A DNA stretch of 44,127 nt. Source: Candidatus Magasanikiibacteriota bacterium (GTDB lineage Bacteria; Patescibacteriota; Patescibacteriia; Magasanikbacterales; GWA2-37-8). This document shows, in pieces, positions 3,767 through 34,839 of the stretch. Made by a program: the position numbers and the translations under genes. The notes below the pieces were generated by a model. It was given only the letters and a program-made list of their open reading frames with translations. It was not told the DNA's origin and ran no database searches. The number at the start of each line of letters is the position of its first letter. Within the stretch, counting starts at the first letter, position 1. The stretch is from positions 22,640 to 66,766 of the forward strand of contig CALRGC010000004.1 in assembly GCA_943357105.1 (NCBI GenBank). Direction: 5' to 3'.

Positions 3767-3778
3767 ATTAATTAATTT

Positions 3779-4446: not shown

Positions 4447-4452
4447 AAATTT

Positions 4453-4480
4453 ATTATACCACATTTTTAGAGAGTCGTAA
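4453..4480 (-). promoter_or_regulatory. Candidate sigma70-type promoter with extended -10
   Basis: The minus strand reads TTACGA (4480-4475), a 16-nt spacer, then TGgTATAAT (-10 TATAAT is the rc of 4453-4458, TG at 4460-4461). It sits in the 225-nt gap after the stop of the 4505-5410 gene. Confidence 0.4.
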
Positions 4481-4504
4481 TGTTGACCCTGTGGATAACT
4501 TTTT

Positions 4505-5410: not shown

Positions 5411-5413
5411 AAA

Positions 5414-6817: not shown

Positions 6818-6836
6818 AATTGAAATAAATGAAAAA

Positions 6837-9645: not shown

Positions 9646-10591
9646 GAAATTTTATTGCTAATGATTTAATGATACCATATAGACCAAACCACTTAAGCCA
9701 CTTTTTTAGGTGATAAGACAGCAGACTTATATGATAATGGTGGAGATTAGTAAAATGATCAGCTCTTTTATCTCTTACAACTGTTAGGGGATGAACCAAA
9801 GGAAAATCCATGCTGGAAAGCGGCACATTCGCGACATTTTTTTGATGATAGATCCCGTGTGTAGCTTGGGCGTTGAAACCAATATTAGTGACTAAATTTC
9901 GATTAGGCAAACAAGTTAATCCGTTATTTTGCCAACAAGCAAAAGTCCAGGCATAATCCCACGTATTAATTTTATTATCATACATTTCTTCCATAATATT
10001 TAGCCAATAAAGTCTTTCCGATTTTGAATTAAATATCTGATTAATTGAATTGTTTGATTTAAAATTGGGAAATTTATTCATATTTAAATCAAACATCAGC
10101 CAAGCACGTCGCCAGGTTGCCCAACCCCAGATGTGATTAAAGACAGAAAAATAATAGCTGGCTTCACCACGCTTGTTGCCCATTTGAAAATTAGAACCAC
10201 TTATCTGCATAATCCGATTATCATCTCTATAGACAGCTAACAACTCCTGCACAAATCTAAAAAAACTTTGGTTAGGCAAGCAATCATCTTCTAAGATTAT
10301 ACCTTCTTCTACCTGGCTAAAAAACCAGTCTATCGCTTGACTAACAGCTTTTTTACAGCCTAGATTTTTTTCACGATATAAAATTTTTACTTCACATGGC
10401 CAATTAACGCCACTTTCTACCGTGAGTCTTACCTTTTTTACAAGATCTCTCTCCGCTTCATTTCTAGGACCATCTGAAGCCAAAAATAATTTAGTTGGTT
10501 TTATTTTTTTAATAACCTCAAAAACTTTGGCAGTGGTATCCAAACGATTAAAAATTAAAAATAATATCGGCGTATCAAACTGCTCATTCAT
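9638..10591 (-). CDS. GNT-I-like (GT13-like, HlpA-type) nucleotide-diphospho-sugar transferase, paralogue 1
   Basis: PILFLIFNRLDTT..LFLASDGPR..ILEDDCLPNQSFFRF resembles the EDD....P.FF motif of GnT-I. Clear paralogue of 33901-34839. Confidence 0.6.
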   Translation of the reverse strand: MNEQFDTPILFLIFNRLDTTAKVFEVIKKIKPTKLFLASDGPRNEAERDLVKKVRLTVESGVNWPCEVKILYREKNLGCKKAVSQAIDWFFSQVEEGIILEDDCLPNQSFFRFVQELLAVYRDDNRIMQISGSNFQMGNKRGEASYYFSVFNHIWGWATWRRAWLMFDLNMNKFPNFKSNNSINQIFNSKSERLYWLNIMEEMYDNKINTWDYAWTFACWQNNGLTCLPNRNLVTNIGFNAQATHGIYHQKNVANVPLSSMDFPLVHPLTVVRDKRADHFTNLHHYHISLLSYHLKKWLKWFGLYGIIKSLAIKFRG

Positions 10592-20194: not shown

Positions 20195-21100
20195 TTATAG
20201 CGATTCTGTTTCTTTAGATATAACATTAAATATTGGCATTCCTTTAATCTTTTCTAAACGTTCACTGCCTGACAAAAACGATAGATCTCCCTGCTCATTT
20301 CGGCTGTCCCTAAACTTAGAAACAACATAACCTTCTTTGGCGGAAAGCGGCTTTAGATTGCCAATTTTGTCTTTTCTGACAAAGTAAGCGTTATTCCCAG
20401 CGCTATTACTACCAATAAAATTATAGCCCTTGATTTCAGCCAATGCACACAAAGCTGGGAGCGAAGTCCCCCAGTATAGATTACTGAAGTGCGCTTTAGT
20501 TCGGTTAAAATCAGGACGATAAGGGACGGTAACAGTTCGTTCATTACCAAAAATACTGTTATATTCAACAATAACTAATATTGGACTAGTGACGGTAATT
20601 GCTTCCCAAACCCAATAGTCATTACCATCTATATCTATACTCAACAAACCTATCTCACCAGCAAAGCCGTTATCTTTAAGCAACGCGTTAATATTTTCCT
20701 TGGAAATAAAAGCGGCTACCGCTTGCAGGTCATAGCGCCATACGATTTCATCATCTTTAATACTGGCAACATTTTTTACCGATCCGTCCATGACCAAACC
20801 CGACCAATTGTTGTTCATTAACAAAAAACGAGTGTTGGCTTCCAAATAATTTTCCACCCCAAACTCAACAAAACGCTTATCCGTGATGTCTAATTGCTGG
20901 AGAAAATATTGAATAATTCCGTCATCACCAAACTGTGAAAACACTTTAAACTCAACTTCAGCCAAATTTTGTATATTCTTTTTGGTAGCCAGTTGCTGAC
21001 TAAGCAGTCTGCCCGTGAGCAAAACATTCGCCAGCAATAACTGGCGAATTTCGTTCATGAAGCGACCTAGACGTTGTTTAAGTTTATTCAGAAAAAACAT
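20195..21100 (-). CDS. Uncharacterised protein with FkbM-like methyltransferase-fold features
   Basis: FSQFGDDGIIQYFL..RFVEFGV and LLSIDIDGNDYWVWE parallel the YAQEGEDLVL..FFVDIGA and LNIDVEGLDLAVLE motifs of the clear FkbM-family gene at 34852-35538. Confidence 0.4.
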   Translation of the reverse strand: MFFLNKLKQRLGRFMNEIRQLLLANVLLTGRLLSQQLATKKNIQNLAEVEFKVFSQFGDDGIIQYFLQQLDITDKRFVEFGVENYLEANTRFLLMNNNWSGLVMDGSVKNVASIKDDEIVWRYDLQAVAAFISKENINALLKDNGFAGEIGLLSIDIDGNDYWVWEAITVTSPILVIVEYNSIFGNERTVTVPYRPDFNRTKAHFSNLYWGTSLPALCALAEIKGYNFIGSNSAGNNAYFVRKDKIGNLKPLSAKEGYVVSKFRDSRNEQGDLSFLSGSERLEKIKGMPIFNVISKETESL

Positions 21101-21127
21101 AGCTCAATAGTACCATTATATCTCCAT

Positions 21128-21157
21128 ATTTTAGCAAATTAAGGCCTTTACTGTCAA
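21128..21157 (-). promoter_or_regulatory. Candidate internal sigma70-type promoter
   Basis: The minus strand reads TTGACA (rc of 21152-21157), an 18-nt spacer, then TAAAAT (rc of 21128-21133). It lies in the 102-nt gap between the ACP gene and the 301-aa gene. Confidence 0.3.
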
Positions 21158-21202
21158 TGTAATAATCCTCCAATGTATAGGCTTTAAACCACCTGTTCTT
21201 CA

Positions 21203-21439
21203 TTATTCTACCATCGACACGCCGTGTTTTTTTAAGGCTTCTTTAATATCGCGAAAATCTTTAATCTCGACTACTTCTTCAATATTAAATTTAACACCAT
21301 ATTCTTTTTCCAAAGCCGAAATCAACATCAGTCCATTAAATGAATCCCAGGCCGCGACGTTTTCCGGCGAGCTCGCGTCGTTAATACTGTCTTCAGAAAT
21401 TTCCAAAATTGATGCTAAAACAGCTTTCGGTGATCGCAT
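21203..21439 (-). CDS. Acyl/peptidyl carrier protein
   Basis: 78 aa and acidic, with AAWDSFNGLMLISALEKEYGV carrying the DS(L/F) phosphopantetheine-attachment serine. Confidence 0.8.
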   Translation of the reverse strand: MRSPKAVLASILEISEDSINDASSPENVAAWDSFNGLMLISALEKEYGVKFNIEEVVEIKDFRDIKEALKKHGVSMVE

Positions 21440-21443
21440 ATAA

Positions 21444-22304
21444 TTAATTGTTTAAAAAAATTTTCAGACACTCAAGGTATTGGCCCGGTTCTTCCAGGTG
21501 GGGCAGATGGGAGCTTTTTTCAAATATTTGCAATTTGGAACCAGCAATTTGAGCTTGATAGAAAGCTACATCTTCTGGACTAGCACCATCAAAGCGACCG
21601 CCAGTAAACAGAGTCGGTAGTGTAAGCTCTTTTAGTCGTTCGCTCCGATCATATTCAGCCAGATTTCCCGAAACCGTGTATTCATTCGGTCCCCACATCC
21701 GCAAGTAGACCTCGCGATTAAAACCATGCTTAGCGGCCTTAATGAGACTCGGTTCCTGTTGCATCCTGCATTCATAGGTTTTATAGTAAAGAGTCCTTGC
21801 AATTTTATATTCCCGGACTTCGCCCTTACCATTTTCCTCATATTCCCGAATTAAAATTCCATAATTATTAGGCAACTCCGCAAGATAGCGGTCCGTGGTT
21901 TCTTTCCACCGTTTTAGGCTAAGGCATGGACTAGCAAAGATTGCCCTTTTTATTTCTGAAGGCTGGGTAAGCAAATATTCTACGGCCAACATTGCGCCCC
22001 AAGAATGGCCAAACAGATCGATATTTTTCAAATTCAATTTTTCTATTACCGCAACCAGTTCTTGAACAAAATATTCAATCGTACAAAATTTCGGATCGCG
22101 AGTATGGCTGGATCTACCGCACCCGATTTGATCAAAAAAAACCACTTGATGCTTATCGGAGAGCGCCTCTAAATTCCATAAGTAATCGCTAGGATACCCC
22201 GGTCCGCCGTGAACAATTAAAAGTGGCGGAAGGTCGGATGAACCAACGGTCTTGTACCACAGCGATCCCCAAGGCAGTTGGATAAAACCTTCTTTATTAG
22301 TCAT
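21444..22304 (-). CDS. Alpha/beta hydrolase of the prolyl-iminopeptidase type (possible acyl/aminoacyl transferase or thioesterase)
   Basis: LLIVHGGPGYPS (HGGPG oxyanion motif), LFGHSWGAM (GxSxG nucleophile elbow), 286 aa. Confidence 0.7.
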   Translation of the reverse strand: MTNKEGFIQLPWGSLWYKTVGSSDLPPLLIVHGGPGYPSDYLWNLEALSDKHQVVFFDQIGCGRSSHTRDPKFCTIEYFVQELVAVIEKLNLKNIDLFGHSWGAMLAVEYLLTQPSEIKRAIFASPCLSLKRWKETTDRYLAELPNNYGILIREYEENGKGEVREYKIARTLYYKTYECRMQQEPSLIKAAKHGFNREVYLRMWGPNEYTVSGNLAEYDRSERLKELTLPTLFTGGRFDGASPEDVAFYQAQIAGSKLQIFEKSSHLPHLEEPGQYLECLKIFLNN

Positions 22305-23355
22305 GGCTCACCTTGATTATTTCCTGAAATAAATCAAAAGCTTTCCCATCAGAAACTGGTCGGGTTGGAGATTTCATTAAAAACGGAGAGGCTTTCCAAG
22401 CATCAGATTGCCTATTGGAATCCATTAAAAACTTTGCAACCCGTATAGCATCTACCAGTACACCCGCGCCATTTACACTAATTTCATCTTCAATCACCGA
22501 ATGGATCGTTATTGGCACGCGACCAAACATTTCACCTTCAATATCAATCGTCACTCGCTTGTGGCCGGAAGGTACGCCAGTATAGATAAAATTGACCTTA
22601 GGTTTAACATCGTCTTCTGTCAAGAACTGTGTCAAAGCTTCTCTTTTTGATTTTTCTTTGCTGGCCGCCCGATCCAATAAATTAAAATGGTCGGCATTTC
22701 CACCACGATTTTCCTGCTCTGATTTCAATACCCGGATACCGCGGATCTTAAGAAATTCTAACAGAATACGATTCAACATGGTCGCGCCTAACTGGCTCTT
22801 AATATCATCGCCCAAAAGCACCAAACCTTTAGCTTCAAAACGTTGAGTCCAGTCGGACAAAGTGGCCAATGGCGTCGGGATGCAATTAATAAAACCACAA
22901 CCAGCATCCAATGCGGCTTGAGCATATGCCAGTGTGGCTTGTTCACCTCCGGAAGGTACTAAATTAACTACCAGATCAGCCTTTGATTCGCGAAGCACAG
23001 TAGCAACATCGGTGGCTGGCGTAGTACTTTCCTGAACAAAAGATTCTTTCATCGCCTTACTCACGCTGTCCAAAGTCGGTCCGCGATGCACGACAGCGTC
23101 ATATGTCAAACTTTCAGTGATTTGTTTAGTGATATTTGGTTTCACGGAAATGGCTTCGTGAAGTTTTTTACCGACTTTGCGTTCATCAACATCAAAAGCC
23201 GCTACAAAATTAATATCTTGGACCTGATATGGGCCAATAAAAGGATTCATAAGACCGCGATGCTCATTGGGGTTTTTCGTATAAAAAGCCACACCTTCTA
23301 CTAGAGCCTTAGTAAAGCTTCCTACACCGACAATCGCTACGTTAATTTTTTTCAT
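22297..23355 (-). CDS. ino1: myo-Inositol-1-phosphate synthase family enzyme (inositol-3-phosphate synthase homologue)
   Basis: VAIVGVGSFTKALVEGV, GPYQVQDINFVAAFDVDERKVG, HRGPTLD, LLGDDIKSQLGATMLNR, GGNADHF and LMKSP are collinear with bacterial Ino1 as I recall it (M. tuberculosis). Confidence 0.75.
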   Translation of the reverse strand: MKKINVAIVGVGSFTKALVEGVAFYTKNPNEHRGLMNPFIGPYQVQDINFVAAFDVDERKVGKKLHEAISVKPNITKQITESLTYDAVVHRGPTLDSVSKAMKESFVQESTTPATDVATVLRESKADLVVNLVPSGGEQATLAYAQAALDAGCGFINCIPTPLATLSDWTQRFEAKGLVLLGDDIKSQLGATMLNRILLEFLKIRGIRVLKSEQENRGGNADHFNLLDRAASKEKSKREALTQFLTEDDVKPKVNFIYTGVPSGHKRVTIDIEGEMFGRVPITIHSVIEDEISVNGAGVLVDAIRVAKFLMDSNRQSDAWKASPFLMKSPTRPVSDGKAFDLFQEIIKVSHD

Positions 23356-23356
23356 A

Positions 23357-25093
23357 CTAATTTTCTTCTATTATCGGGTTCATTTCCGCGTCCAGTGTGG
23401 AAAAATCCCCGAGGGGTGAATTAGATTCTTGTGATCTTAGAATGCGTCTCATAATCTTCCCGCTTTTAGTCTTTGGCAATTTATCTACGAATTCTATCTC
23501 CCGAGGTGCCACATGACTGGCCAATTTATCCCTGACATAAGCAGTTAGCTCGGTTTTTAACTGATCTGTTCCCGATACGCCAGGCTTTAGCATGATAAAA
23601 GCTTTTATTATGGATCCAAACAGTTGGTCTGGTTTTCCAATTACTGCTGCTTCCGCCACTTTAGGGTGCGCTACCAAAAAACTTTCTATTTCAAATGGGC
23701 TTATCCTTTCCCCAGCACTCTTGATTATGTCGTCTTCACGACCCTGAAACCAAAAATAGCCATCGGCATCCTGATAGGCGGAATCACCGGAAATATACCA
23801 ACCATTCTGAAAATATTCCTCAAATTTTTTTTGATTACCCCATACGGTTTTCATAAGTCCCGGCCACGGTGTTTTAACGGCCAGCCGGCCAATGGTTCCA
23901 ACTGGAAGCTCCTCACCTTGCTCGCTTAGAATAGCCGCCCGGATACCGGGCAGAGGCTTACCCATTGAACCTTTTCTTATCGGCAAGCATCGATAATTAT
24001 TAATTAATTGATGGCCGTTTTCAGTCATGTACCAGGAATCATGGATCGGGATGCTTAAATTGTTTTCAGTCCAATCAATCAGACTAGGATTGAGCGGCTC
24101 ACCAGCACTGACTATATGTCGTAGCTTAGGCAAATGCTCCCGATCAAATGGTACGCCATAGTAACGCAATAGTCGAAAAGCTGTAGGCGTACTGTACCAG
24201 ACGCTTATTCCCATCCGCGACATAAACTTAATCCAATCCAAAGGATGAAAAGGTCCTTCATATAGATGGGCAGCAACGCCTAAAAGCAATGGAGCAAAAA
24301 AATTATAGATCATACCAGTCACCCAGCCTGGATCGGCAGTATTCCAGTAATTATCTTCCGGGTGCAGATCCAACACATATTTGGCTGTTAGTAAATGGCC
24401 AATCATAGCACGTGAAGAAAGCAATATCCCTTTTGGTTTGCCAGTTGATCCAGAAGTATAATGTATCACAAAGGGTGTTTCCAAATCGCCAAACTGCGTG
24501 GCGGCCGGATTTGGTTGGCCCTGATAGCAATCGCTTAACAAATGAACTGATAATCCCGGCAAGGAAATTGAAGAGTCAATCAAAATATTTGTTACGGAAA
24601 GACCGCTGTCAAAGGGAACATTTTTTATCAGATTGCTCGTAACATAAAGCCAGGTGGCACCACAGTCATTAAGACGATCTACGATTGCTTCCCGGCCAAA
24701 AGCCGAAAATAATGGCACAGCAACAGCGCCACACTTAATCGCCGCTAATAGCACGACTGCGTAATCAAGAGACTTGGCGGCGTAAAGTCCAAAACGATCA
24801 CCGGCTTTTAACCCTCTAGAACGTAGCGACGTCGCCAAGATGGATGTTAAATCAGCCAATTCCCTGAAAGTAATACTGACCACACGGCCATCTGTCTTTT
24901 GAGAAATAAAGGCTGGTTTGTCACCATTGCCTTTTTGTACCTGATAGTCGGTAACTTCATAAGCATAGTTAACTTTACCTGTAGAGTTGAAGGAAAATTC
25001 TTTATGCCAATGATCCCAATTAAAATCAAACTTAGCTGATTCATAATCAGTTAGGTTTGGCGAAAGGTTAAGAATATCTGTGTTGGGGTACAT
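23357..25093 (-). CDS. AMP-forming acyl-CoA/acyl-carrier-protein ligase (ANL superfamily, acetyl-CoA-synthetase-like)
   Basis: YTSGSTGKPKG (A3), YISGDSAY..GREDDIIKSAGERISPFEIE (A8) and LPKTKSGKIMRR (A10 lysine). Confidence 0.85.
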   Translation of the reverse strand: MYPNTDILNLSPNLTDYESAKFDFNWDHWHKEFSFNSTGKVNYAYEVTDYQVQKGNGDKPAFISQKTDGRVVSITFRELADLTSILATSLRSRGLKAGDRFGLYAAKSLDYAVVLLAAIKCGAVAVPLFSAFGREAIVDRLNDCGATWLYVTSNLIKNVPFDSGLSVTNILIDSSISLPGLSVHLLSDCYQGQPNPAATQFGDLETPFVIHYTSGSTGKPKGILLSSRAMIGHLLTAKYVLDLHPEDNYWNTADPGWVTGMIYNFFAPLLLGVAAHLYEGPFHPLDWIKFMSRMGISVWYSTPTAFRLLRYYGVPFDREHLPKLRHIVSAGEPLNPSLIDWTENNLSIPIHDSWYMTENGHQLINNYRCLPIRKGSMGKPLPGIRAAILSEQGEELPVGTIGRLAVKTPWPGLMKTVWGNQKKFEEYFQNGWYISGDSAYQDADGYFWFQGREDDIIKSAGERISPFEIESFLVAHPKVAEAAVIGKPDQLFGSIIKAFIMLKPGVSGTDQLKTELTAYVRDKLASHVAPREIEFVDKLPKTKSGKIMRRILRSQESNSPLGDFSTLDAEMNPIIEEN

Positions 25094-25094
25094 A

Positions 25095-25466
25095 TTACTT
25101 TTTAATCAAATATCCCTCCTTAAAAATTACCAAAGCGGCGGCGGAACTAGGACTATGAGCCAAACTAACCAAAACTTTAAGCTTTGGGACTCTGACAAAA
25201 CGCAGTTTTGGCTGACCGCTTTTACGGGTTAAAATTTCAATATCAGTATAATCGAAGCCACGCATACCGCCCATCGCCTTTATAAAGGCCTCCTTGGCGG
25301 CAAATCGCGCGGCCAGATGTTCGGCAGGTTTGACTTTGCCAAAACAATATTTTAACTCTTTAGAGGTAAAAACTCTCTTCAAAAAATTATCATTTTTACT
25401 ATGGTAAAATTTTTGAAAACGCGCTATATCTTCAATATCAATTCCGCATCTTAAATTCTCTATCAT
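25095..25466 (-). CDS. acpS: Holo-ACP synthase (AcpS-type 4'-phosphopantetheinyl transferase)
   Basis: CGIDIEDIARF and AARFAAKEAFIKA motifs. The start at 25466 (MIENLRCGIDIE) gives a typical 123-aa AcpS. The track ORF extends to 25562, adding a 32-aa hydrophobic N-terminus that overlaps the upstream gene by 8 nt. Confidence 0.75.
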   Translation of the reverse strand: MIENLRCGIDIEDIARFQKFYHSKNDNFLKRVFTSKELKYCFGKVKPAEHLAARFAAKEAFIKAMGGMRGFDYTDIEILTRKSGQPKLRFVRVPKLKVLVSLAHSPSSAAALVIFKEGYLIKK

Positions 25467-25485
25467 ATTTAGACCAACAAAGGCT

Positions 25486-25514
25486 ATAATACCATATACT
25501 ATGGGGTTTAGCAA
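25486..25514 (-). promoter_or_regulatory. Candidate promoter with extended -10, upstream of the short AcpS start
   Basis: The minus strand reads TTGCTA (rc of 25509-25514), a 17-nt spacer, then TGgTATTAT (-10 is the rc of 25486-25491). It is only meaningful if acpS starts at 25466. Confidence 0.25.
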
Positions 25515-25554
25515 TATAAAACTGAGCAAAAGAGTAAGCGCCTTGGAGCTAACT

Positions 25555-26151
25555 TTAGCCAATTATGGCCACATCAACGGCTGGTCTTATTTTTTTAATG
25601 ATTACCGCCGGATTGCCGGCAACCACCGTAAACGGCTCCACATTAGAAGCAACAAAGCTCCCGGCCGCAATTATTGCGCCCTGACCAATATGTACACCTT
25701 TTAAAATTATGGAATTTGCGCCAATCAATACATCATCATCAATAACGATTTCACGTTCTCGCAAATTAATGGTGCGAGGCTGCCCGTGTTCAATAATCTC
25801 TTTGAAATGATTATGCCGTTCAACTATATCTAGGGGATGTGTATCATTGTCAAAAATATTACAATTATGAGAAATAAGGACTCTATTACCTATGCTAATC
25901 TTTTTTGCTGACCAAATATAGGTATTCCTTCCGACAAAACAAAAATCACCTATTTTTATTTCTCCTCCGTGACCAAATACAAGCAACTCGCCTTTTATGT
26001 GGGTGTTATTACCTATTTTTATCTTCTCTTTTTTATTCAGATTATTTATTATTGAAGCCGTCTCGTACAGCACACTCTTTTCACCTAAAAGATAATCTTT
26101 CTCTTTAAATGGTTTAAAAAATAAATTGTAAACAATTCCTTTAATATTCAT
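25555..26151 (-). CDS. Left-handed beta-helix (hexapeptide-repeat) acyl/acetyltransferase
   Basis: [89 protein letters not shown]. An AGGTGG SD-like sequence lies ~9 nt upstream of the ATG. Confidence 0.8.
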
Positions 26152-26215: not shown

Positions 26216-26938
26216 TTATAGCTGTTGTAAGGCTTTGTTGGCATCATCTAAAAACTGGACAACAGTTTCTTTTGTTCGAGCTGACAACAGACATTTCGCG
26301 ATTACCTCCGGAGGTATAGTAAGAATATGCGCACCGCTCTTACTCCACAGATCCACATTCTCCGGACTGCGCACGGAACCAACAATTATTTCAATATTTT
26401 TATAATTATGAAAATCAAGCCACTGTCTCACTTCTTTTAGCACTTTTTGCGCTTGCTCCACCCCGTGCTCCTCGGAAATTCTACCCGCAAAAATACTTAT
26501 AAAATGCGTTTTTTTAACTTGACTTTTTGATAAACCGGCATTAATAGCCTTGGCAGCCAAAATAGCCTGATTAAAGGTCATCATGGCGGTAACGTTGACC
26601 GAAATACCTTCAGAAACCAGCTGATAAATAGCCGGCAAAAGCGAGCTACCGTTTCTATCAGTGATGGTAACTTTTACTGAAATATTTTCGGCCCAAGCAT
26701 TATACTTTCTAGCCTCAACAAGAATTTCGTCAATCTTATCTGTTGTCACTTCCACACTTAATGGACGAGGTGCAATCAAAGCGGCGATCTCAAGCGCTCT
26801 TTTTTTTATTCCTTCTTCACCACCTTTAACGCCAGATTTTAAACAAATACTTGGATTGGTAGTAACACCATCACAAAGCCCCCAACTTATATATTTTTCA
26901 ACTTCTCCGACTTCGGCACTATCGATAAATATTTTCAT
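26216..26938 (-). CDS. Transaldolase / fructose-6-phosphate aldolase family (class I aldolase, TalC/FSA type)
   Basis: MKIFIDSAEVGEVEKYISWGLCDGVTTNPS and ISVKVT (Schiff-base Lys position), 240 aa. Confidence 0.75.
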   Translation of the reverse strand: MKIFIDSAEVGEVEKYISWGLCDGVTTNPSICLKSGVKGGEEGIKKRALEIAALIAPRPLSVEVTTDKIDEILVEARKYNAWAENISVKVTITDRNGSSLLPAIYQLVSEGISVNVTAMMTFNQAILAAKAINAGLSKSQVKKTHFISIFAGRISEEHGVEQAQKVLKEVRQWLDFHNYKNIEIIVGSVRSPENVDLWSKSGAHILTIPPEVIAKCLLSARTKETVVQFLDDANKALQQL

Positions 26939-26952
26939 ATTATTTATAATAA

Positions 26953-27468
26953 TTAAATAAAATCAAACATTTCCCTAATATTAGTAATTACATAATCTGC
27001 CAACTCCACAGCATCATTATTGTATTCACGTTGCAACAGAATTGTTTTGCAACCAGCGGCTTTACCTGCCAACATATCGCGTCTTGTATCTCCTAATAGA
27101 TACGACTTAGTTAAATCAATACCATTTTTTTCGGCTGATTTTATGATTAGACCCGGTTCTGGTTTACGACAACTGCATTGATCAAGATCGTCATGCGGGC
27201 AAAGATTAATCTCATCAACCAGCAACTCCTTTTCTAACAAAGCGTGCATCTCGTCCAATATTTCTACAGCCATGAGACCGCGCGCGATATCCGGTTGGTT
27301 AGTAACGATAATATTTTTAAATTCAAGCTCTCTTGTTCTTTGAAAATGTTCGCTAATTTCTTGCGTTAACTTAAAATCTATAAATTTTCTTGGACTCAAC
27401 GCCTTATTGTTAACAATCGTAACCTCATTAATAACTCCATCACGATCCCAGAAGATGGCCTTTGTCAT
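26953..27468 (-). CDS. gmhB: D-glycero-D-manno-heptose 1,7-bisphosphate phosphatase (HAD, GmhB type)
   Basis: AIFWDRDGVINE (DxD nucleophile motif), the zinc-finger insert CPHDDLDQCSCRKP (CxHx6CxC RKP) and LLGDTRRD. Confidence 0.75.
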   Translation of the reverse strand: MTKAIFWDRDGVINEVTIVNNKALSPRKFIDFKLTQEISEHFQRTRELEFKNIIVTNQPDIARGLMAVEILDEMHALLEKELLVDEINLCPHDDLDQCSCRKPEPGLIIKSAEKNGIDLTKSYLLGDTRRDMLAGKAAGCKTILLQREYNNDAVELADYVITNIREMFDFI

Positions 27469-28034
27469 AACTGCTTTAGCAAATTTACTAACAAATGATT
27501 GACTAATAATTGAAAATCCTCAGTATAAGGAGTTATCATAGATTCTTCGACTGTTGGGACTACCAAGCAAGCATCGGCCATTTGAGCGGTAACACCGGTG
27601 TTTCTACCAACAACCCCAAGAATTTTTGCTCCCACAACTTTCGCGTACTCTATTGCCTGCACTAAATTTTTAGAGACGGTTTGTGTGCCTCCGCCAACCG
27701 AAAAAATAAATAGACAATCTTTGGCGGTAAAATGATGCATTTCTAGTTGGCGTTTGAAAACTGAGTCCCAACCTTCATCATTCGCCAAAGCACTAAACAA
27801 TGCTACGTTATCGGTAAGACAAAAAGTAGAGATATTGGCGATTTTATTAAAATCATTAGTAGCGTGGGAAGCCGAGGCTGCCCCTCCACCTATCCCTAAA
27901 AAAAATACTCTTCCTTGTGATTCCCGTGTGATTAAAAGAACATCAGCCATTTTTTCTAAATTCTCACGACTACAACTTTCAGCTATTTGAGCTGATCTTT
28001 TTAAATATAGATCAATAAAGTTATGCTTGTCCAT
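27465..28034 (-). CDS. gmhA: SIS-domain sedoheptulose-7-phosphate isomerase (GmhA-like)
   Basis: 189-aa single SIS domain with FFLGIGGGAASASHATNDF, FIFSVGGGT and GAKILGVVG. ATGA overlap with gmhB. Confidence 0.7.
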   Translation of the reverse strand: MDKHNFIDLYLKRSAQIAESCSRENLEKMADVLLITRESQGRVFFLGIGGGAASASHATNDFNKIANISTFCLTDNVALFSALANDEGWDSVFKRQLEMHHFTAKDCLFIFSVGGGTQTVSKNLVQAIEYAKVVGAKILGVVGRNTGVTAQMADACLVVPTVEESMITPYTEDFQLLVNHLLVNLLKQL

Positions 28035-28039
28035 AAATG

Positions 28040-29041
28040 CTAAAAATTAATAATTTTTTTATTTTTAGATGAAGAATACAAACCAGCTATTAATTTATTG
28101 GCCATCATACCATCAAAACCGTTGCCATTCGGCTGAATCTTTTTGGCAATAGATGATCTAAAATTCTTCCATTCTTCTTCCCATGATGTATCACGATCAT
28201 AAAAAAAATCTTGCTCCGCAGGTCGGGTGCCAAGTTCTTTTCTCCTACCAATTTTCAACGTTTCTCTGCCGTAACTGCCTCCTTTTCCTTCAATATTAAT
28301 ATATCCTCTCTTACCAAAAATGTCAATCATAAATCTATTTTTCCATTGGGTGGCACTGACGTGCATTTGAGCGACCTTACCGTCAAATGTACGAAGGGTA
28401 CAGAAAGCATTATCATCCAATTTTGATTTGTCCCAAAACATATTTTCACAGAACGCCATACCTTCTTTAAACTCCCCTAAAAACCAACGAAAAAGGTCGA
28501 GTATATGAACGCCTTGGTCAAGCAATTCACCTCCGCCAGAAAATTTTTCATTCATTCTCCATTCCAAATCATAGCCTTTTCTTCCACCGTGGCCATAAAC
28601 TGCGCGCATGTACATCAATTCACCGATCGCCCCTTTGGCTACTAAATCGTGCGCTTTTCGCACTGCTAAATGAAAGCGATGATTAAAACCAACTTTTAAC
28701 ATTACCTTATTTTTTTGGGCGTATGTGTAAATTTTTTTTGCTTCAAGATAATTAATTCCTAACGGTTTTTCACACAAAATATTTTTCTTATAACGTATCG
28801 CTTCCAAACACAGTGGCGCGGAAACATTACTAACAGTAGCGATAATAACAGCCTCAATATTTTTATCTTTAAAAATATCCGTGCTACTTTTGGCTATAGC
28901 ACATCCGACTTTTTGCGCCAAAGCAGTGCTTCTCACTAGATCGGTATCAAAAATGGACACAATCCTATCTTTTTTAAATTTCATAATAACTTCTGCCCGT
29001 TTAGCACCAATAAACCCCGCTCCGATAATACCAACGTTCAT
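28040..29041 (-). CDS. Gfo/Idh/MocA-family NAD(P)-dependent oxidoreductase
   Basis: MNVGIIGAGFIGAKRA Rossmann N-terminus and the ILCEKPL motif, 333 aa. Confidence 0.75.
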   Translation of the reverse strand: MNVGIIGAGFIGAKRAEVIMKFKKDRIVSIFDTDLVRSTALAQKVGCAIAKSSTDIFKDKNIEAVIIATVSNVSAPLCLEAIRYKKNILCEKPLGINYLEAKKIYTYAQKNKVMLKVGFNHRFHLAVRKAHDLVAKGAIGELMYMRAVYGHGGRKGYDLEWRMNEKFSGGGELLDQGVHILDLFRWFLGEFKEGMAFCENMFWDKSKLDDNAFCTLRTFDGKVAQMHVSATQWKNRFMIDIFGKRGYINIEGKGGSYGRETLKIGRRKELGTRPAEQDFFYDRDTSWEEEWKNFRSSIAKKIQPNGNGFDGMMANKLIAGLYSSSKNKKIINF

Positions 29042-29044
29042 ATA

Positions 29045-29902
29045 TTACTTAATTATTTCTTGAAAATACTTATTGTCGATACGACGCAATGTAAGTTCCG
29101 AAGATTTTTTTAAACGTTCCAGTTCAACTTCATTCCATTCATTCCAACTATCCCATTTGGCGCTAATTAACTTACCAGTAAGATTAAGAGAGCGATCACT
29201 AACCAAAAACGCAGTCAAGTCAGCCGCCAATTGTGGCGAATCTCCACCATCTTTTTTTTGATTAACAATTTTTTCGTAAAATTTTTCTCCGACCATTTTG
29301 GCGCCAGCCTCTAACGATTCGTCAAGTAGTCTAGTATTCACTGCGCCTGGTGCGATGGCGTTAATTTGAATATTGTAAGATTTATATTCCTCAGCAATTG
29401 TTTCGGTGAAACGAACGACTGCCGCCTTGGAAGTGGCGTAACTGGAAAAATTGGGGAACGTATTGACCGCACCGCCGCCGGAAAAATTAATTATTTTACC
29501 GGCTTTATTTTTAAGCATTATTGGTAAGACAGCATGGGTACAGTGCGCTGTTCCCACCAGATTGATCTGGATAGTTTTAGTCCAAAGACATATATCGTTA
29601 GTATCAAATTGACCAATCGGCCCATATACACCGGCGGCATTGACCAAAATATCAATAGTGTGAAATTTTTCTATAACAAATTGAACAACTTTTTTTACTT
29701 GTTCATAGTCCGAAACATCAGCCTCTTTTATTACTATAGTTAGTCCGACCGCGTTTAGCTCATTTTGAAGAATTTTTAACTCATCAAGCGATCGAGAAAT
29801 AGCCACGACTCGACAGCCTTGTCTAGCCAGCGTTTCCACAATAGTCCGACCGATCCCCTTGCTGCCCCCCGTGATAAGGGCTACTTTGTCTTGTAATATC
29901 AT
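29045..29902 (-). CDS. Classical short-chain dehydrogenase/reductase (FabG-like SDR)
   Basis: KVALITGGSKGIGR, NAAG and SSYATSKAAV (YxxxK). The probable start is 29902 (MILQDKVALITGG); the track start at 29953 runs into the upstream gene. Confidence 0.75.
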   Translation of the reverse strand: MILQDKVALITGGSKGIGRTIVETLARQGCRVVAISRSLDELKILQNELNAVGLTIVIKEADVSDYEQVKKVVQFVIEKFHTIDILVNAAGVYGPIGQFDTNDICLWTKTIQINLVGTAHCTHAVLPIMLKNKAGKIINFSGGGAVNTFPNFSSYATSKAAVVRFTETIAEEYKSYNIQINAIAPGAVNTRLLDESLEAGAKMVGEKFYEKIVNQKKDGGDSPQLAADLTAFLVSDRSLNLTGKLISAKWDSWNEWNEVELERLKKSSELTLRRIDNKYFQEIIK

Positions 29903-29912
29903 ACAATTGAAA

Positions 29913-31217
29913 TTATTTAGCGTTAAAGCCAATACCATAATATCTAAAACCATTCTTCTTTATACCTTCTGAATCCAAAAAATTCTTACAGTCTACAACC
30001 ACTGCCTTCGGTGCTATTTTTTTTATTTTCGCGAAATCAAGTTCTTTAAACTCAGGCCAATCCGTGACAAGCAAAATTGCCACTACGTCAGCTACTGCAC
30101 TGTAAGCATCAGTGGCGAGCTGTATATTTTCCAAAATTTTCAAAGGAGAAGTTATTTTCGGATCAAACGCCTTGACCCGAGCGCCGGCTCGCAATAATTT
30201 CTTAGCCAACTCGACAGACATAGAACGACGCAAGGTGCTAGTTCCAGGTTTATATGTGAGTCCAAGAATGGCGATTTTTTTATTTTTTAGAGAGCCTACG
30301 CTATTTTTTATTTTTTCAATAACTTTTTTCTGACGAGCTTGATTTACCTCTCGAACAGCATTTATTAAATGCATTTTTACTGAACGTAATTTTCCTAAAT
30401 TACTTAAAATAGCGATATCTCGACCAAGTGTTCCACCCGCATAACCCATACCAGGACTTAGAAAAGCCTGTGCGCCGATACGCCGATCGGCTTTGAGTCC
30501 AGCGGCCACACGACGCACGTCCGCTCCGGTAACCTCACACATGTCAGCAATTTCATTGATGAAACTAATTGACATAGCCAAAAAAGCATTCGTAGCGTGT
30601 TTAACCATTTCCGCACTTTCAAGGTCCATATAAAATTTCGGAGCATCAATTACTTTATAAAAATCTTCCACCGTCCTCTGCACCGTTACATCCTCCAGAC
30701 CAATAATTACTCGATCTGGTTCCAAAAATTTTTTGATCGCCTGGCCGAGCATAATATTTTCCGGATTATACACAATCGTGCATTTCATTGACGCTCGAAG
30801 CTTTAGCATAAACTGCTTTAAAAATCGACAACTACCGATAGGCACCTGGCTCATGATAATAATTATACAATCATCAGAGGCAAACTGAGCGATTTTTTCA
30901 CAGGCTTTGTAGATCACCGTCATATCAGGCTCATCATGACTATTGACCGGAGTATCAAAAGCGATAACAATAAACTTCTTTTTTTCTAAAGCACTTTTGA
31001 AGTCAGTAGTAAAATTGAGTCTCCCCTTTGCCTTATTTTTCTTAATAAGATCCGCTAAACCAGGTTCAAATAATGGAGGCAAGTTTGATTCTAAATCATG
31101 CATTATTTTTTTATCAAAATCAATACCAGTTACCAGATAACCTTTGTCAGCTAAACCGGCGGAAACGGTACACCCCAAATGCCATAAACCGATAACAGCT
31201 ACTTTAGTTTCGCTCAT
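29913..31217 (-). CDS. UDP-glucose/GDP-mannose dehydrogenase family protein with the catalytic Cys replaced by Thr
   Basis: KVAVIGLWHLGC, NPENIMLGQA and EMVKHATNAFLA (Lys/Asn retained). FLSPGMGYAGGTLGRDIAIL aligns with the canonical FL.PG.GFGGSCFPKD, placing Thr263 (codon ACA, rc of 30429-30431) at the nucleophile position. Confidence 0.8.
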   Translation of the reverse strand: MSETKVAVIGLWHLGCTVSAGLADKGYLVTGIDFDKKIMHDLESNLPPLFEPGLADLIKKNKAKGRLNFTTDFKSALEKKKFIVIAFDTPVNSHDEPDMTVIYKACEKIAQFASDDCIIIIMSQVPIGSCRFLKQFMLKLRASMKCTIVYNPENIMLGQAIKKFLEPDRVIIGLEDVTVQRTVEDFYKVIDAPKFYMDLESAEMVKHATNAFLAMSISFINEIADMCEVTGADVRRVAAGLKADRRIGAQAFLSPGMGYAGGTLGRDIAILSNLGKLRSVKMHLINAVREVNQARQKKVIEKIKNSVGSLKNKKIAILGLTYKPGTSTLRRSMSVELAKKLLRAGARVKAFDPKITSPLKILENIQLATDAYSAVADVVAILLVTDWPEFKELDFAKIKKIAPKAVVVDCKNFLDSEGIKKNGFRYYGIGFNAK

Positions 31218-31237
31218 ATACTAAAATTAATATAATT

Positions 31238-32224
31238 TTAAAAATTAACAATCACTTTTGACCCCTCTTCCTCGAACCTGAAAGGCATTTCTACCAAACC
31301 ATTCTGTTTCATCGCGTTGCGAATACCATTTTTGTCACCTGGACAATAAAAAACTAAAAAACCACCACCACCCGCTCCCATAATCTTACCGCCTAAAGCA
31401 CCGTGCTCTTTAGCTAACGCATATAATTTGTCAATTTTTGGATCAGACATTTTGGTTGACATTGTCTTTTTTATTTGCCAATGATCATCCATAAGTCTAC
31501 CAAAATCATCCAACTCGCCTTTTTCAATGGCGTTTTTAATTTCTATTCCAATTTCTTTAATCTTTAACAATGATTGTGTCACGTCGCTCTGTTTATTTTC
31601 AGCGGCTGTACTTTGTTCACCAAGAATATTCATCGCATCGCGAGAGATACCGGTATAAAAAATAACTAACCTATTTTGCAACTTCTCTATTGTATCTGGC
31701 GCGATCTGCGCGTTTGATACTTCTACTCGTCCATTACGATCAATATTCATAATGGTAAAACCACCAAATGCCGCCAGATACTGATCCTGCTTCCCCACCG
31801 GTTTGTGCAATAGATCAATCTCAATATGACAAGCTTCCTCGGCTAATTCTTGAACGCTTAAACCCTTGTGTGTTAATGCTTGTAGACCCTTTAAAAGACC
31901 AACGAGATATGAGCCAGACGAACCCATTCCAGTACCTTCCGGCACATCGGCCATTGAGGCAATCTCAATACTGTCTTTAATACCATAATATTCCAAAGCA
32001 GCGCGGGCAAGCTGATGTTGTACCTGCGTCACATTTTCTACCATCTCCGTACGTGAATATTTAAGGCGTATAAGCGAATCAACCACTGGTCGGTTTATAG
32101 TAATATACATATACTTATCAATCGCCACACTAAACAAAAAACCGCCGTGCTGTTTGTAAAAAGCAGGTAAGTCAGTACCTCCACCACCCAGAGGAATTCT
32201 AAAAGGTGTTCGCGTTAAAATCAT
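31238..32224 (-). CDS. hddA: GHMP-family sugar kinase, D-glycero-alpha-D-manno-heptose 7-phosphate kinase-like
   Basis: MILTRTPFRIPLGGGGTDLPAFY, PEGTGMGSSGS (GHMP motif II) and GAGGGGFLVFY. Confidence 0.7.
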   Translation of the reverse strand: MILTRTPFRIPLGGGGTDLPAFYKQHGGFLFSVAIDKYMYITINRPVVDSLIRLKYSRTEMVENVTQVQHQLARAALEYYGIKDSIEIASMADVPEGTGMGSSGSYLVGLLKGLQALTHKGLSVQELAEEACHIEIDLLHKPVGKQDQYLAAFGGFTIMNIDRNGRVEVSNAQIAPDTIEKLQNRLVIFYTGISRDAMNILGEQSTAAENKQSDVTQSLLKIKEIGIEIKNAIEKGELDDFGRLMDDHWQIKKTMSTKMSDPKIDKLYALAKEHGALGGKIMGAGGGGFLVFYCPGDKNGIRNAMKQNGLVEMPFRFEEEGSKVIVNF

Positions 32225-32247
32225 AATATTAAATTTTATAGATAAAA

Positions 32248-32964
32248 TTATTTTATTTTTTTAAAAAATGTCTGAGTCTTTTCATAGCATTCTATCGTAT
32301 CACACCCAAAAACATATTCTTTATCACCAAGCTGGTAAGTGTTTATAGTAATACCATTTTGTAAAAGTTGTGGGAATAGATCTTTGCCAAAATCGTACTT
32401 TTGTCCAGTGGGGATATATTTAAAAATTTTAGGATCAAGTACATATACTCCGGCGTTGACTAGATCGCTAATTGCCGCACCACCCTCAATAAATTGACGC
32501 ACGCTGTGATCTTCATTAATGAGCACACGACCACCGGCAATGCCGCTATTCTTGTTCTTTTTTATATCAAAGAGCGCTATTGTACAAATAGCTTTACTTT
32601 TCTGATGAGCCAATAAAAGCGAAGCCAGATTACAGTTGGTAAAATTATCGCCATATAAAAGGAAAAATGGTTCGGTTAATTTCTCTTCAACATTTTTTAC
32701 ACCGCCGGCGCTACCAAGTAATTCTTTTTCTTTGGAATAATCAATATGTACACCAAACTGATTACCATCCTGAAAATAATCGACGATCTTGTTTGGTTGA
32801 TAATATACATTGATAACCAAATCTCTAATTCCATAACTCTTGGCTAAATTAATATTATGCTCCAAAAGCGGCTTACCGCCGATCTCAACCATAACTTTTG
32901 AAATAGTATCAGTCAATGGACGCAACCTAGTTCCCTCTCCAGCGGCTAAAATCATTGCTTTCAT
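32248..32964 (-). CDS. hddC: Sugar-1-phosphate nucleotidyltransferase, heptose-1-phosphate guanylyltransferase-like
   Basis: MKAMILAAGEGTRLRPLT signature, 238 aa, immediately upstream of the hddA-like kinase. Confidence 0.65.
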   Translation of the reverse strand: MKAMILAAGEGTRLRPLTDTISKVMVEIGGKPLLEHNINLAKSYGIRDLVINVYYQPNKIVDYFQDGNQFGVHIDYSKEKELLGSAGGVKNVEEKLTEPFFLLYGDNFTNCNLASLLLAHQKSKAICTIALFDIKKNKNSGIAGGRVLINEDHSVRQFIEGGAAISDLVNAGVYVLDPKIFKYIPTGQKYDFGKDLFPQLLQNGITINTYQLGDKEYVFGCDTIECYEKTQTFFKKIK

Positions 32965-33911
32965 AGTACGTGCTGTTTAATGTAAGCGATTTGTTCTTTA
33001 ATTCCTTGTTCAAGAGTGGTCTGTGGTTGCCAACCAAGGGCACGCAATTTGGCGCAATCAGCGAGCGTTATTTCAGCTTCACCAGTTAAATTATTCAGGT
33101 ATTGCGCTTCGACATGAACCCCAACGAGGTCTTTAATTATTTTATAAATTTCATTTACAGAATAATTTTTGCCAGAACCAATATTATAGACTTCATTATT
33201 CGCCTTTTCTTCGTTCATCAAAAGTACGTGGGCGTCGTTGATATCATCAACATAAATAAAATCACGCTTTTTTTCTCCGGTGCCGTATATAACCGGCTGT
33301 TTGCCCTGCAATAACTGAATAATGAAAGCGGACATAAGCGGTGGAATGGTCCGACGATAATCTTGTCGGGGACCGTACACATTAAAATAACGCAAACCGA
33401 TACTGTCCAAATTATAAAATTCTTTATAAGCCTGCGCAAAATGGTGTCCAGCTACTTTACTACGAGCATAAAAACTGTGTGGGGCCACCGCGCTTTCGGG
33501 CGTAGGAAATTGATTACTTCCTTCATATACCGCCGAACTTTCGGCGTAAATCACTTTTTTAACGCCAGCGCGCACACTTGCCTCAAATACATTGACTGTC
33601 CCAGTCACATTGATATCGGACGTAGCGAGCGGATCCTTTTGACAATCACTGATACAATTCTTGGCCGCCAGATGAAAAACATATTTTACACCTTCAAAAA
33701 GCGGATATATTTTCTTTGATCGAATATCGATCTCATGAAAAACAACACCGGCCGGAATTTGTTCTCGAACGCCATACGAAAGATTATCTATACCAACTAC
33801 TTCATATCCTTCCTGGAGTAGCCTGACCGCGAGATTGCTTCCGATAAAACCGGCGACACCGGTGATTAGAACTTTTGTCATATTCAAATTTAAAAATTTA
33901 CTATGATCCAA
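32961..33911 (-). CDS. NAD-dependent nucleotide-sugar epimerase/dehydratase (extended SDR)
   Basis: [19 protein letters not shown] (YxxxK) and RYFNVYGPRQ. An alternative start at 33881 (MTKVLITG) would remove the 11-nt overlap with the upstream gene. Confidence 0.75.
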   Translation of the reverse strand: MDHSKFLNLNMTKVLITGVAGFIGSNLAVRLLQEGYEVVGIDNLSYGVREQIPAGVVFHEIDIRSKKIYPLFEGVKYVFHLAAKNCISDCQKDPLATSDINVTGTVNVFEASVRAGVKKVIYAESSAVYEGSNQFPTPESAVAPHSFYARSKVAGHHFAQAYKEFYNLDSIGLRYFNVYGPRQDYRRTIPPLMSAFIIQLLQGKQPVIYGTGEKKRDFIYVDDINDAHVLLMNEEKANNEVYNIGSGKNYSVNEIYKIIKDLVGVHVEAQYLNNLTGEAEITLADCAKLRALGWQPQTTLEQGIKEQIAYIKQHVL

Positions 33912-34839
33912 AAAATAAAGAAAAATAACGTTTGGATATGGCCTTGAGCTTATTTTTTACTTTCTTTAAAAATGGTGTTAATAAATATTGATTCATATAA
34001 AACTCTTCCGCCTCTTTATTCCTTATCATAAACCTTGGATGTGAAATTTCTCCGATATCATTAGTAACTAGATTTGCAAACTTGTCATTTTCATCGTCAG
34101 AAGAAAGACCGCCATTACCAAAACCAATGTTTGATATTAAATTGACATTTGGGCAGATTGACAAACCTCCATTTGCCCAAACGGCATACACCCAAGGATA
34201 ATCGTATGCTAACACACGTCCATCATAAACTTTCCCGAAGATGTTCAACCAGTATTTTTGAATTTTTTTATCATCAAATATATTTTTTATTTGGTTTTGC
34301 TCCTTAAATTGCGGGAAAGATGTCATTTTTATATCATAGTGCTTCCAGGACCTCCTCCAGGTGGCATAACCCCAGGTACTACTAATTTGCGAAAAGTAAT
34401 AACTTTCCGTGCCCCTTTTTATACCTTGTTGAAAATTAGCACCACTAATAAGCATTATCCTTTCATCATCTCTGTATTTTTGCAGTAGTTCCTCACAATA
34501 TCTAAAAAATGATAGGTGCGGCAAACAATCATCCTCCAAAATAATACCCTCGGGCACTTGTTCAAAAAACCAGGTTATCGCCGAACTAATAGAAACATTA
34601 TGAACGCCATTTTTTTCTCGAAACAAAGTTTTTAGTTCACAATCCCAATCAATTTCTTTAAAAAGCTCTCGCACCATATTTACTTTGTCCGCTTCTCCAA
34701 CCACTTCATCTCTTGGTCCGTCAGAAGCAACGAATAATTGTTTGGGTTTTAACTTTCTAATTTCATTCAAAACAGCGCGGGTTGTTTCCACTCGCTTAAA
34801 AACTATTAATAATATAGGTACATTAAATGCATCGCTCAT
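33901..34839 (-). CDS. GNT-I-like (GT13-like, HlpA-type) nucleotide-diphospho-sugar transferase, paralogue 2
   Basis: PILLIVFKRVETT..LFVASDGPR..ILEDDCLPHLSFFRY..WGYATWRRSW..NLISNIGF is collinear with 9638-10591. Confidence 0.6.
   Translation of the reverse strand: MSDAFNVPILLIVFKRVETTRAVLNEIRKLKPKQLFVASDGPRDEVVGEADKVNMVRELFKEIDWDCELKTLFREKNGVHNVSISSAITWFFEQVPEGIILEDDCLPHLSFFRYCEELLQKYRDDERIMLISGANFQQGIKRGTESYYFSQISSTWGYATWRRSWKHYDIKMTSFPQFKEQNQIKNIFDDKKIQKYWLNIFGKVYDGRVLAYDYPWVYAVWANGGLSICPNVNLISNIGFGNGGLSSDDENDKFANLVTNDIGEISHPRFMIRNKEAEEFYMNQYLLTPFLKKVKNKLKAISKRYFSLFFGS

Follow-up and report, generated by a model that had tools for sequence, protein, structure and literature searches.

A divergent myo-inositol-1-phosphate synthase family member in a surface-glycan cluster of a Candidatus Magasanikiibacteriota bacterium

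What does a bacterium with a genome of 925 kb (98.8% complete) do with a cyclitol-phosphate synthase placed inside a gene cluster for surface glycans? The question is raised by a stretch of 44,127 nucleotides of Candidatus Magasanikiibacteriota bacterium (assembly GCA_943357105.1, contig CALRGC010000004.1, positions 22,640 to 66,766), called here the window, in which positions 22297-23355 of the minus strand hold an intact open reading frame (ORF) of 352 codons coding for a protein (P0001) that belongs to the family of myo-inositol-1-phosphate synthases (MIPS). An earlier note on this DNA, which gave no strand, had described the gene as a homologue collinear with bacterial Ino1 in a surface-glycan operon, and had offered two options, either that inositol phosphate is a substituent of the glycan or that the enzyme cyclises a non-canonical sugar phosphate. 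Family membership, clade, residue changes, rarity and linkage to other genes were observed directly. Our preferred reading, to which we give about an even chance, is that the enzyme would supply a cyclitol phosphate, probably inositol phosphate, for a substituent of a decorated surface glycan.

The product matched the catalytic domain PF01658 of Pfam with 58.2 bits (cut-off 27), and the NAD-binding domain PF07994 only along a partial stretch, with 22.1 bits and thus below the gathering score of 25. Despite this low score, its N-terminal domain aligns fully to Ino1 of Mycobacterium tuberculosis (PDB 1gr0), the top match among solved structures, with which the protein is collinear from end to end (residues 3-344 to 15-362, E 6e-66). 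The second solved match was Ari2 (PDB 6k96, E 3e-43). The NCBIfam equivalog TIGR03450 also aligned end to end, with 252 bits against a cut-off of 638. The phosphate loop GDDxKSQxGAT, the NxGGNxD motif and the four active-site lysines of the family are all in place, and the motifs and the collinearity given in the earlier note were found in the translation as described there. Since the tree places the protein outside the canonical clades and TIGR03450 is far below its cut-off, the gene is, judged by these comparisons, a real and intact member of the MIPS family and not a canonical Ino1.

The tree in question is a maximum-likelihood reconstruction of 98 MIPS family members. According to the earlier note there would be nothing unusual in a protein nested within the canonical Ino1 clades of a genome with the standard consumers encoded elsewhere; the window protein lies outside those clades, in a clade of its own with a support of 100 in the Shimodaira-Hasegawa approximate likelihood ratio test (SH-aLRT). 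The nearest neighbour of this crown clade in the tree is a small intermediate clade (sister, 100), and a canonical-type sequence is sister (97) to the two together. The near homologues, 59-77% identical to the window protein, come from Patescibacteria, i.e. the Candidate Phyla Radiation (CPR), from DPANN and other archaea, from uncultured Gammaproteobacteria and from one metagenome-assembled genome of the Ignavibacteriota, whereas canonical Ino1 proteins are only 35-44% identical. Because taxa from different domains are interleaved in the crown part of the tree, the clade seems to have moved often by horizontal transfer among CPR bacteria, DPANN archaea and a part of the uncultured Gammaproteobacteria. 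Among 60 related genomes surveyed for MIPS (11 of the same genus, 25 of the same family and 24 of the same order) a single one, G021, possesses the clade enzyme (74% identity) and two others have a canonical-type MIPS. A sample of 400 genomes across the phylum added one more carrier of the clade (G264, 77% identity). By this distribution the MIPS gene is a rare accessory gene of the host lineage.

The active site of the clade combines conservation with replacement. Columns were compared between 42 clade members and 102 canonical relatives, and a second residue survey covered 52 sequences derived from loci (36 crown and 16 intermediate). The loop GDDIKSQLGAT, N216, G218-G219-N220, D222, K233, K237, K266 and K328 are kept throughout the 42 clade members. 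By single residues, D183, D184, K186, S187, Q188, G190, A191, T192, N216, N220, D222, K233, K237, K266 and K328 are found in 41 or 42 of them (D183 in 41) and in most of the canonical relatives. The changes with respect to the canonical enzymes are N13S (in the GxGN loop), Q20E, H195N, F223H, D264G, V290D and D292I, together with a 3-residue insert at 254-256, and the signature of the clade reads S13 E20 N195 H223 G264 H265 K266 D290 I292. Positions 264 and 292 correspond in the 1gr0 alignment to D282 and D310 of M. tuberculosis Ino1. Here G264 and I292 are found in 40/42 clade members, while the canonical aspartates are present in 79/102 and 94/102 of the relatives (77-92%). The window protein lacks this conserved pair, and so do all 36 crown sequences of the second survey (59-100% identical to it), the reason why we call the clade 'Asp-less'. 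In the M. tuberculosis enzyme D310, with S311, reportedly binds the active-site zinc next to the NAD (Norman et al. 2002); the roles given here to active-site residues follow in part that work and Stieglitz/Neelon 2005.

The 16 intermediate sequences (46-57% identity to the window protein) have E20, N195, H223 and D290 and retain both aspartates. Since this clade holds both sets, the new residues appear to have been gained first, with the aspartates lost later. The swap looks like a relocated cation or base site (D290 precedes D292 by two positions) rather than decay. Furthermore, an identity of 59-77% across domains of life suggests that the crown clade is under strong purifying selection despite the lost aspartates. 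More distant relatives show other arrangements of the gene. Fusions of MIPS with a HAD phosphatase (in the intermediate clade), with a nucleoside triphosphate (NTP) transferase (P0133) and with GNAT were seen among P0124, P0133, P0137 and P0148, and in the same set an intein that carries a LAGLIDADG domain splits one MIPS.

The genes that accompany the enzyme were compared in a non-redundant set of 48 loci, gathered by scanning genomes and metagenomes (the latter represented by 80 of more than 500 matching stretches), plus the window. Flanks adequate for counting partners were available in 27 crown loci (26 of the 48 and the window). A TylF-type O-methyltransferase directly adjoins MIPS in 17 of these 27, mostly within 30 bp. 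An AcsA-like ligase and a small carrier protein are found beside MIPS in six, the window included, in varied gene orders; four of the six (window, L001, L004 and L019) have a 4'-phosphopantetheinyl transferase (PPTase) too, and the short contigs L098 and L108 only the ligase and the carrier. Three loci have neither a methyltransferase nor a ligase partner. In G021 another class-I methyltransferase overlaps the MIPS gene. These associations are confined to the crown clade. In the MIPS tree the members linked to the ligase make up a basal grade, with one more nested among the methyltransferase-linked members, and well-supported branches require at least three partner changes. The simplest common denominator of methyltransferase and acyl-carrier partners would be the decoration of hydroxyls on the MIPS product or on its polymer. 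IMPase-family (inositol monophosphatase) genes share the cluster with MIPS in L082 and L083, which together with the HAD-MIPS fusion would fit a sugar-phosphate product. TagF-like glycerophosphotransferases, or an MBOAT gene following the carrier protein, are present in L081 and L082.

In the window the module comprises, in transcription order and all on the minus strand, a left-handed beta-helix (hexapeptide) acyltransferase, an AcpS-type PPTase, the AcsA-like ligase, MIPS, an alpha/beta hydrolase and a 78-aa carrier protein. The acyltransferase (25555-26151) matches PF00132/PF14602, its WbbJ/WcaF-like matches being all below cut-off, and its gene overlaps by 8 nt that of the PPTase (25095-25562; PF01648 with 65 bits, TIGR00556 and TIGR00516 above cut-off). 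The ligase, 578 aa long (23357-25093), belongs to a variant clade of acyl-AMP ligases: PF00501 and PF13193 were recognised, PRK04319 gave 655 bits (cut-off 729) and the solved AcsA 9g79 matched with E 1e-162. Its ORF ends at 23357 and the MIPS gene starts with the ATG at 23355, leaving a gap of 1 nt. The 3' end of MIPS overlaps by 8 nt (22297 against 22304) the hydrolase ORF (21444-22304; PF00561, proline-iminopeptidase family TIGR01250 with 255 bits, cut-off 168). The gap and the overlap, already described in the earlier note, agree with these coordinates. Translationally coupled to MIPS in this way, the hydrolase is a candidate acyl-transfer or editing enzyme; L082 likewise has an alpha/beta hydrolase gene in overlap with MIPS, though a different one. 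The carrier protein (21203-21439) has a 'WDS' phosphopantetheine-attachment motif and 24.9 bits to PF00550 (cut-off 20.8), and its homologues adjoin MIPS or the ligase in L001, L004, L019, L098 and L108. The window thus possesses the three elements of a carrier-protein acylation module, i.e. an ANL ligase, a carrier with the Ser motif and a PPTase.

Among the matches listed, the ligase clade counts 38 clusters, one of them that of the window and 37 more at 61-74% identity. A sharp gap separates it from ordinary acetate-CoA ligases (Bacillus-type AcsA), which reach no more than 49%. A pattern search in the four ligases inspected gave the motif 'DSWYMTENGH', where Tyr holds the position that we equate with the Trp of the acetate pocket in Acs (W414 in Salmonella enterica). 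A small dedicated carrier protein is found near the variant ligase in the window, L001, L004, L019 and L185-L187. The variant ligase with its carrier suggests a donor of a short, possibly hydroxylated acyl group for glycopolymers. Sampling from the side of the ligase gave three long contigs, L185, L186 and L187, in which the ligase and the carrier protein lie in teichoic-like or O-antigen-like clusters (with a PPTase in L185 and L186). None of these three loci has a MIPS gene within 8 kb, and most MIPS loci in turn have no ligase. It would seem therefore that the acid activated by the ligase does not come from MIPS. The MIPS gene is in this comparison independent of the module, and both appear to be cassettes that were brought together repeatedly. 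L185, the Logan contig of SRR8931233, shows in positions 2984-9951 a teichoic-like cluster with two distinct pairs of AMP-ligase and carrier, a phosphoenolpyruvate mutase (phosphonate) and two TagF-like genes; its TylF methyltransferase is preceded by an unannotated ORF of 351 aa that is not a MIPS. Two linked ideas about the module were discarded, that the acid activated by the ligase derives from the MIPS product, and that MIPS cyclises a carrier-bound sugar acid (a Dieckmann-type release). Against them, ligase and carrier occur without MIPS in all three ligase-side loci, MIPS of this clade occurs with methyltransferases and no ligase, and the pocket of the ligase is small, as in AcsA.

The surroundings are those of a glycan cluster, as the earlier note had already recognised. 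In this island MIPS is an accessory gene. The window is one long co-directional cluster with numerous glycosyltransferases of families GT2, GT4, GT10 and GT11, methyltransferases and a C-methyltransferase. A Wzt-type ABC ATPase at 39668-40930 has a C-terminal carbohydrate-binding domain (PF14524), which in a CPR bacterium would imply an exported polymer capped by a terminal modification. The GC content reaches the maximum of the window (0.41-0.44) over 21000-25500, where the carrier protein, the hydrolase, MIPS and the ligase are located, and the other 1.5-kb bins have 0.27-0.39, except for 0.41 at 4501-6000. This increase fits an imported cassette. Scans for promoters and terminators of the region gave sites at the level expected by chance. 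The best sigma-70-like site, at 21128-21157 of the minus strand (11/12 matches, with TG), falls in the gap of 102 nt that follows the carrier-protein gene, where the acyl/MIPS module may end. The ORF that follows this gap (20195-21100) had no match in Pfam or NCBIfam, and the ORFs at 33901-34839, 9638-10591 and 3779-4279 had none in Pfam (the four are 166-317 aa long).

How such a gene could serve the glycan can be sketched as follows. The window gene would code for a functional NAD-dependent enzyme of the divergent crown clade that makes a cyclitol phosphate, most likely converting glucose-6-phosphate (G6P) into 1L-myo-inositol-1-phosphate by means of the conserved phosphate loop, the four lysines and the Asn/Asp motif, with a rebuilt cation site. 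It would be co-transcribed and translationally coupled with the acyl-carrier module inside the large ABC-transporter-type cluster. The product would become a cyclitol or cyclitol-phosphate substituent of the glycopolymer instead of entering phosphatidylinositol or mycothiol, and the neighbouring module would add a short acyl group to the cyclitol or to the same polymer, a decorating role that in other hosts would mostly fall to the TylF-type O-methyltransferase. The substrate, product, acceptor and acyl group of this pathway are those that we infer. A SIS-type phosphoglucose/phosphomannose isomerase lies 5 kb upstream of the window and the genome has one phosphoglucomutase/phosphomannomutase, so G6P can be reached. 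The classical phosphoglucose isomerase (PF00342), ROK, glucokinase, the cupin phosphoglucose isomerase and G6P dehydrogenase were not found in the genome. The idea that G6P is unavailable in this host was dropped in view of the isomerase and the mutase. A literature search for MIPS in connection with O-antigen, capsule, Patescibacteria or TylF, and for CDP-inositol in teichoic acids, gave nothing relevant.

Several observations weigh against this preferred reading. Given the ligase-side loci without MIPS, the acyl module and MIPS may be mere neighbours serving the same polymer. The Pfam scans, which covered nearly every window ORF of at least 100 aa, recognised in the window neither an inositol-phosphate cytidylyltransferase nor a TagF-like polyol-phosphate transferase. 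Some crown members are located among housekeeping genes. Finally, two aspartates conserved in 77-92% of the canonical enzymes have been replaced and four new invariant polar residues (E20, N195, H223 and D290) have appeared, so that the substrate, the product or the cofactor might be altered.

This last point leads to the alternative to be taken most seriously, although we consider it less likely than not. The enzyme would have changed its chemistry, cyclising fructose-6-phosphate (F6P), mannose-6-phosphate, an amino- or deoxy-hexose-6-phosphate or a heptose or octose phosphate from the neighbouring genes, or releasing another cyclitol or inosose phosphate, and the glycan would carry a carbocycle other than inositol. 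The swaps are correlated (the ancestral N13, D264 and D292 lost as N13S, D264G and D292I, and E20, N195, H223 and D290 gained, both sets coexisting in the intermediate clade), the TIGR03450 score is far from its cut-off, and the MIPS fold accepts F6P in Ari2, as the earlier note had rightly said (PMC9092360). The residue changes and that precedent leave some probability for a non-canonical substrate. The three cues that the earlier note attached to this option fared worse. The phosphate loop and the four lysines are canonical, 'DDIKSQLG' in the window protein, unlike the 'DDLASHLG' of Ari2. The heptose genes do lie nearby, with TAL/FSA (26216-26938) at 2.9 kb and a gmhA-like gene (27465-28034) at 4.1 kb, as placed by the earlier note within 3-5 kb, but the hddA-like gene (31238-32224) is 7.9 kb away. 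All are on the minus strand in an NDP-heptose/octose block (26216-32964) that is given here only as context and contains, by Pfam and NCBIfam, TAL/FSA, a HAD GmhB-like protein, a SIS GmhA-like protein, a Gfo/Idh/MocA oxidoreductase, an SDR, a UDP-glucose dehydrogenase-like protein, an HddA-like GHMP kinase and an NTP-transferase. The latter, the sole NTP-transferase of the window, adjoins the HddA-like kinase and its best NCBIfam matches are generic sugar-1-phosphate nucleotidyltransferases, all below cut-off. However, TAL/GmhA/GmhB genes accompany MIPS in only two of 31 crown loci (window and L004), and others lie beside housekeeping genes. Sugar-phosphate pathways are missing from the surroundings of many crown members, which makes a central metabolite more likely as the substrate. 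A heptose or octose phosphate as substrate finds no support in this comparative context. The Gfo/Idh/MocA oxidoreductase (28040-29041, minus strand, 4.7 kb from MIPS), named in the earlier note as belonging to the family of inositol 2-dehydrogenase, gave 153 bits against the IolG cut-off of 355, lies inside the heptose/octose block and was not found in the other loci of the MIPS clade. It is found, moreover, in MIPS-less ligase loci, and its candidacy as inositol dehydrogenase is not supported. As for the aspartates, cation dependence varies among true MIPS of yeast and archaea, so that the loss of the cation site need not alter the reaction.

A second alternative, which we regard as improbable, is that the products are free small molecules (inositol or its O-methyl or O-acyl derivatives) acting as compatible solutes or as metabolites of the interaction with the host, the position in the glycan cluster being incidental. 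The Saccharibacteria-type loci would agree with this. In L095 (9144-11801), and also in L015 and L109, a MIPS-TylF pair is flanked by TrmB-family regulators in housekeeping surroundings, which looks like a sugar-regulated two-gene cassette. There is as well a lone crown MIPS gene in a Nanoarchaeia genome, and the HAD-MIPS fusion of the intermediate clade adjoins stress genes. The window gene, though, shares an overlap with the gene behind it and begins 1 nt past the one ahead of it, inside a long co-directional glycan operon, and in five other loci MIPS lies amid the ligase-carrier module inside glycan or teichoic-like clusters.

The classical destinations of inositol phosphate are the last to consider. 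By the Pfam scan the window contains no CDP-alcohol phosphatidyltransferase (PF01066) and no IMPase (PF00459), copies of which are on other contigs. The GT4 at 8512-9645 scored 65 bits with MshA (cut-off 462), and was rejected as MshA for being only a generic match. Here the earlier note was correct about the window. Elsewhere the genome does have two PF01066 transferases (one weakly similar by NCBIfam to archaetidylinositol-phosphate and phosphatidylinositol-phosphate synthases, AIPS/PIPS) and two IMPase-family genes. The AIPS/PIPS-like transferase, on contig C12 (L086, 873-2052), adjoins a CarS-like CDP-diglyceride/archaeol synthase gene, and its best matches, AIPS and PIPS, reach 58 bits against a cut-off of 180. 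It is present in 4 of the 11 same-genus genomes, all of them without MIPS, and was not found in the MIPS-bearing G021, so phosphatidylinositol has no comparative support as an explanation; across the 60 relatives this transferase shows no co-variation with MIPS. On contig C8 (L085, 700-2400) one IMPase-family gene (309 aa) adjoins a gene of the sugar-1-phosphate nucleotidyltransferase family, and the two could act as phosphatase and activating enzyme on a polyol phosphate or a sugar phosphate. An ordinary supply of inositol phosphate for a phospholipid, through the CarS-like synthase and the AIPS/PIPS-like transferase, is thus very unlikely for a MIPS gene that is unlinked to this transferase and sits in a variable glycan island.

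The preferred reading, a cyclitol phosphate for a glycan substituent, is therefore the option of the earlier note that we favour, with no lipid or mycothiol partner adjacent to an accessory gene of a glycan island. If true, it would add a new building block to the envelopes of the episymbionts of CPR and DPANN, about whose surface chemistry little is known. A bolder proposal, and a doubtful one, is that the whole crown clade has an altered chemistry, with a new metal or base arrangement made of His223, Asp290, Glu20 and Asn195 and possibly another substrate or product, and that it forms the core of undescribed O-methylated or O-acylated cyclitol decorations of the surface, exchanged as small cassettes among CPR, DPANN and some Gammaproteobacteria. 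MIPS is regarded as mechanistically uniform, and in bacteria it is held to serve inositol lipids, mycothiol and solutes. The crown branch questions the uniformity, having discarded near-invariant active-site aspartates under what appears to be purifying selection, and also the assumed roles, as it travels with methyltransferase or acyl-carrier partners in glycan islands of genomes of about 1 Mb.

Among known systems the closest is the Ino1 of M. tuberculosis, collinear over its full length with the window protein and about 40% identical, with the same Rossmann GxGxxxxxxxG start, GDDIKSQxGAT loop, NxGGNxD motif, SKxxSK pair, HK/RK lysine and MKSP lysine. The differences are D282 and D310 replaced by Gly and Ile, the Asn of GxGN by Ser, and the gain in the window clade of Glu20, Asn195, His223, Asp290 and the insert at 254-256. 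With respect to the short bacterial and archaeal MIPS described by TIGR03450, the score differs (252 against 638 bits) and there is no phosphatidylinositol or mycothiol context here. Ari2, of aristeromycin biosynthesis, is a MIPS orthologue that converts F6P into a five-membered cyclitol phosphate (PMC9092360). It shares the fold and the NAD-dependent logic of oxidation, aldol reaction and reduction, and is the precedent for a substrate other than G6P. However, its match to the window protein is weaker than that of Ino1 (3e-43 against 6e-66), no nucleoside-antibiotic genes are near the window gene, and Ari2 has the DDLASHLG loop and keeps the aspartate of DS(S)N, whereas the window protein has DDIKSQLG and lacks that aspartate. 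The window protein is therefore not of the Ari2 type either by closest solved relative or by its loop. CDP-inositol is made by IPCT/DIPPS of hyperthermophiles. For Bacteroides a route to it through an NTP-transferase has been proposed (PMC9246714). These routes have in common with our preferred reading the activation of inositol phosphate for transfer, and the NTP-transferase-MIPS fusion P0133 is found among the more distant relatives, but no dedicated cytidylyltransferase or CDP-alcohol transferase adjoins the window MIPS. In the Dlt system the ligase DltA, the carrier DltC, the MBOAT protein DltB and DltD esterify teichoic acids; no link to a cyclitol is known for it. The window differs in its host, a CPR bacterium, in its ligase, AcsA-like (for a short-chain acid) and not a D-alanine ligase, and in having a left-handed beta-helix acyltransferase and an alpha/beta hydrolase and no MBOAT gene. 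Like Dlt, it has an ANL ligase and a small dedicated carrier protein, with a PPTase, and the likeness extends to other loci, with MBOAT after the carrier protein in L082 and TagF-like transferases in L081, L185 and L187.

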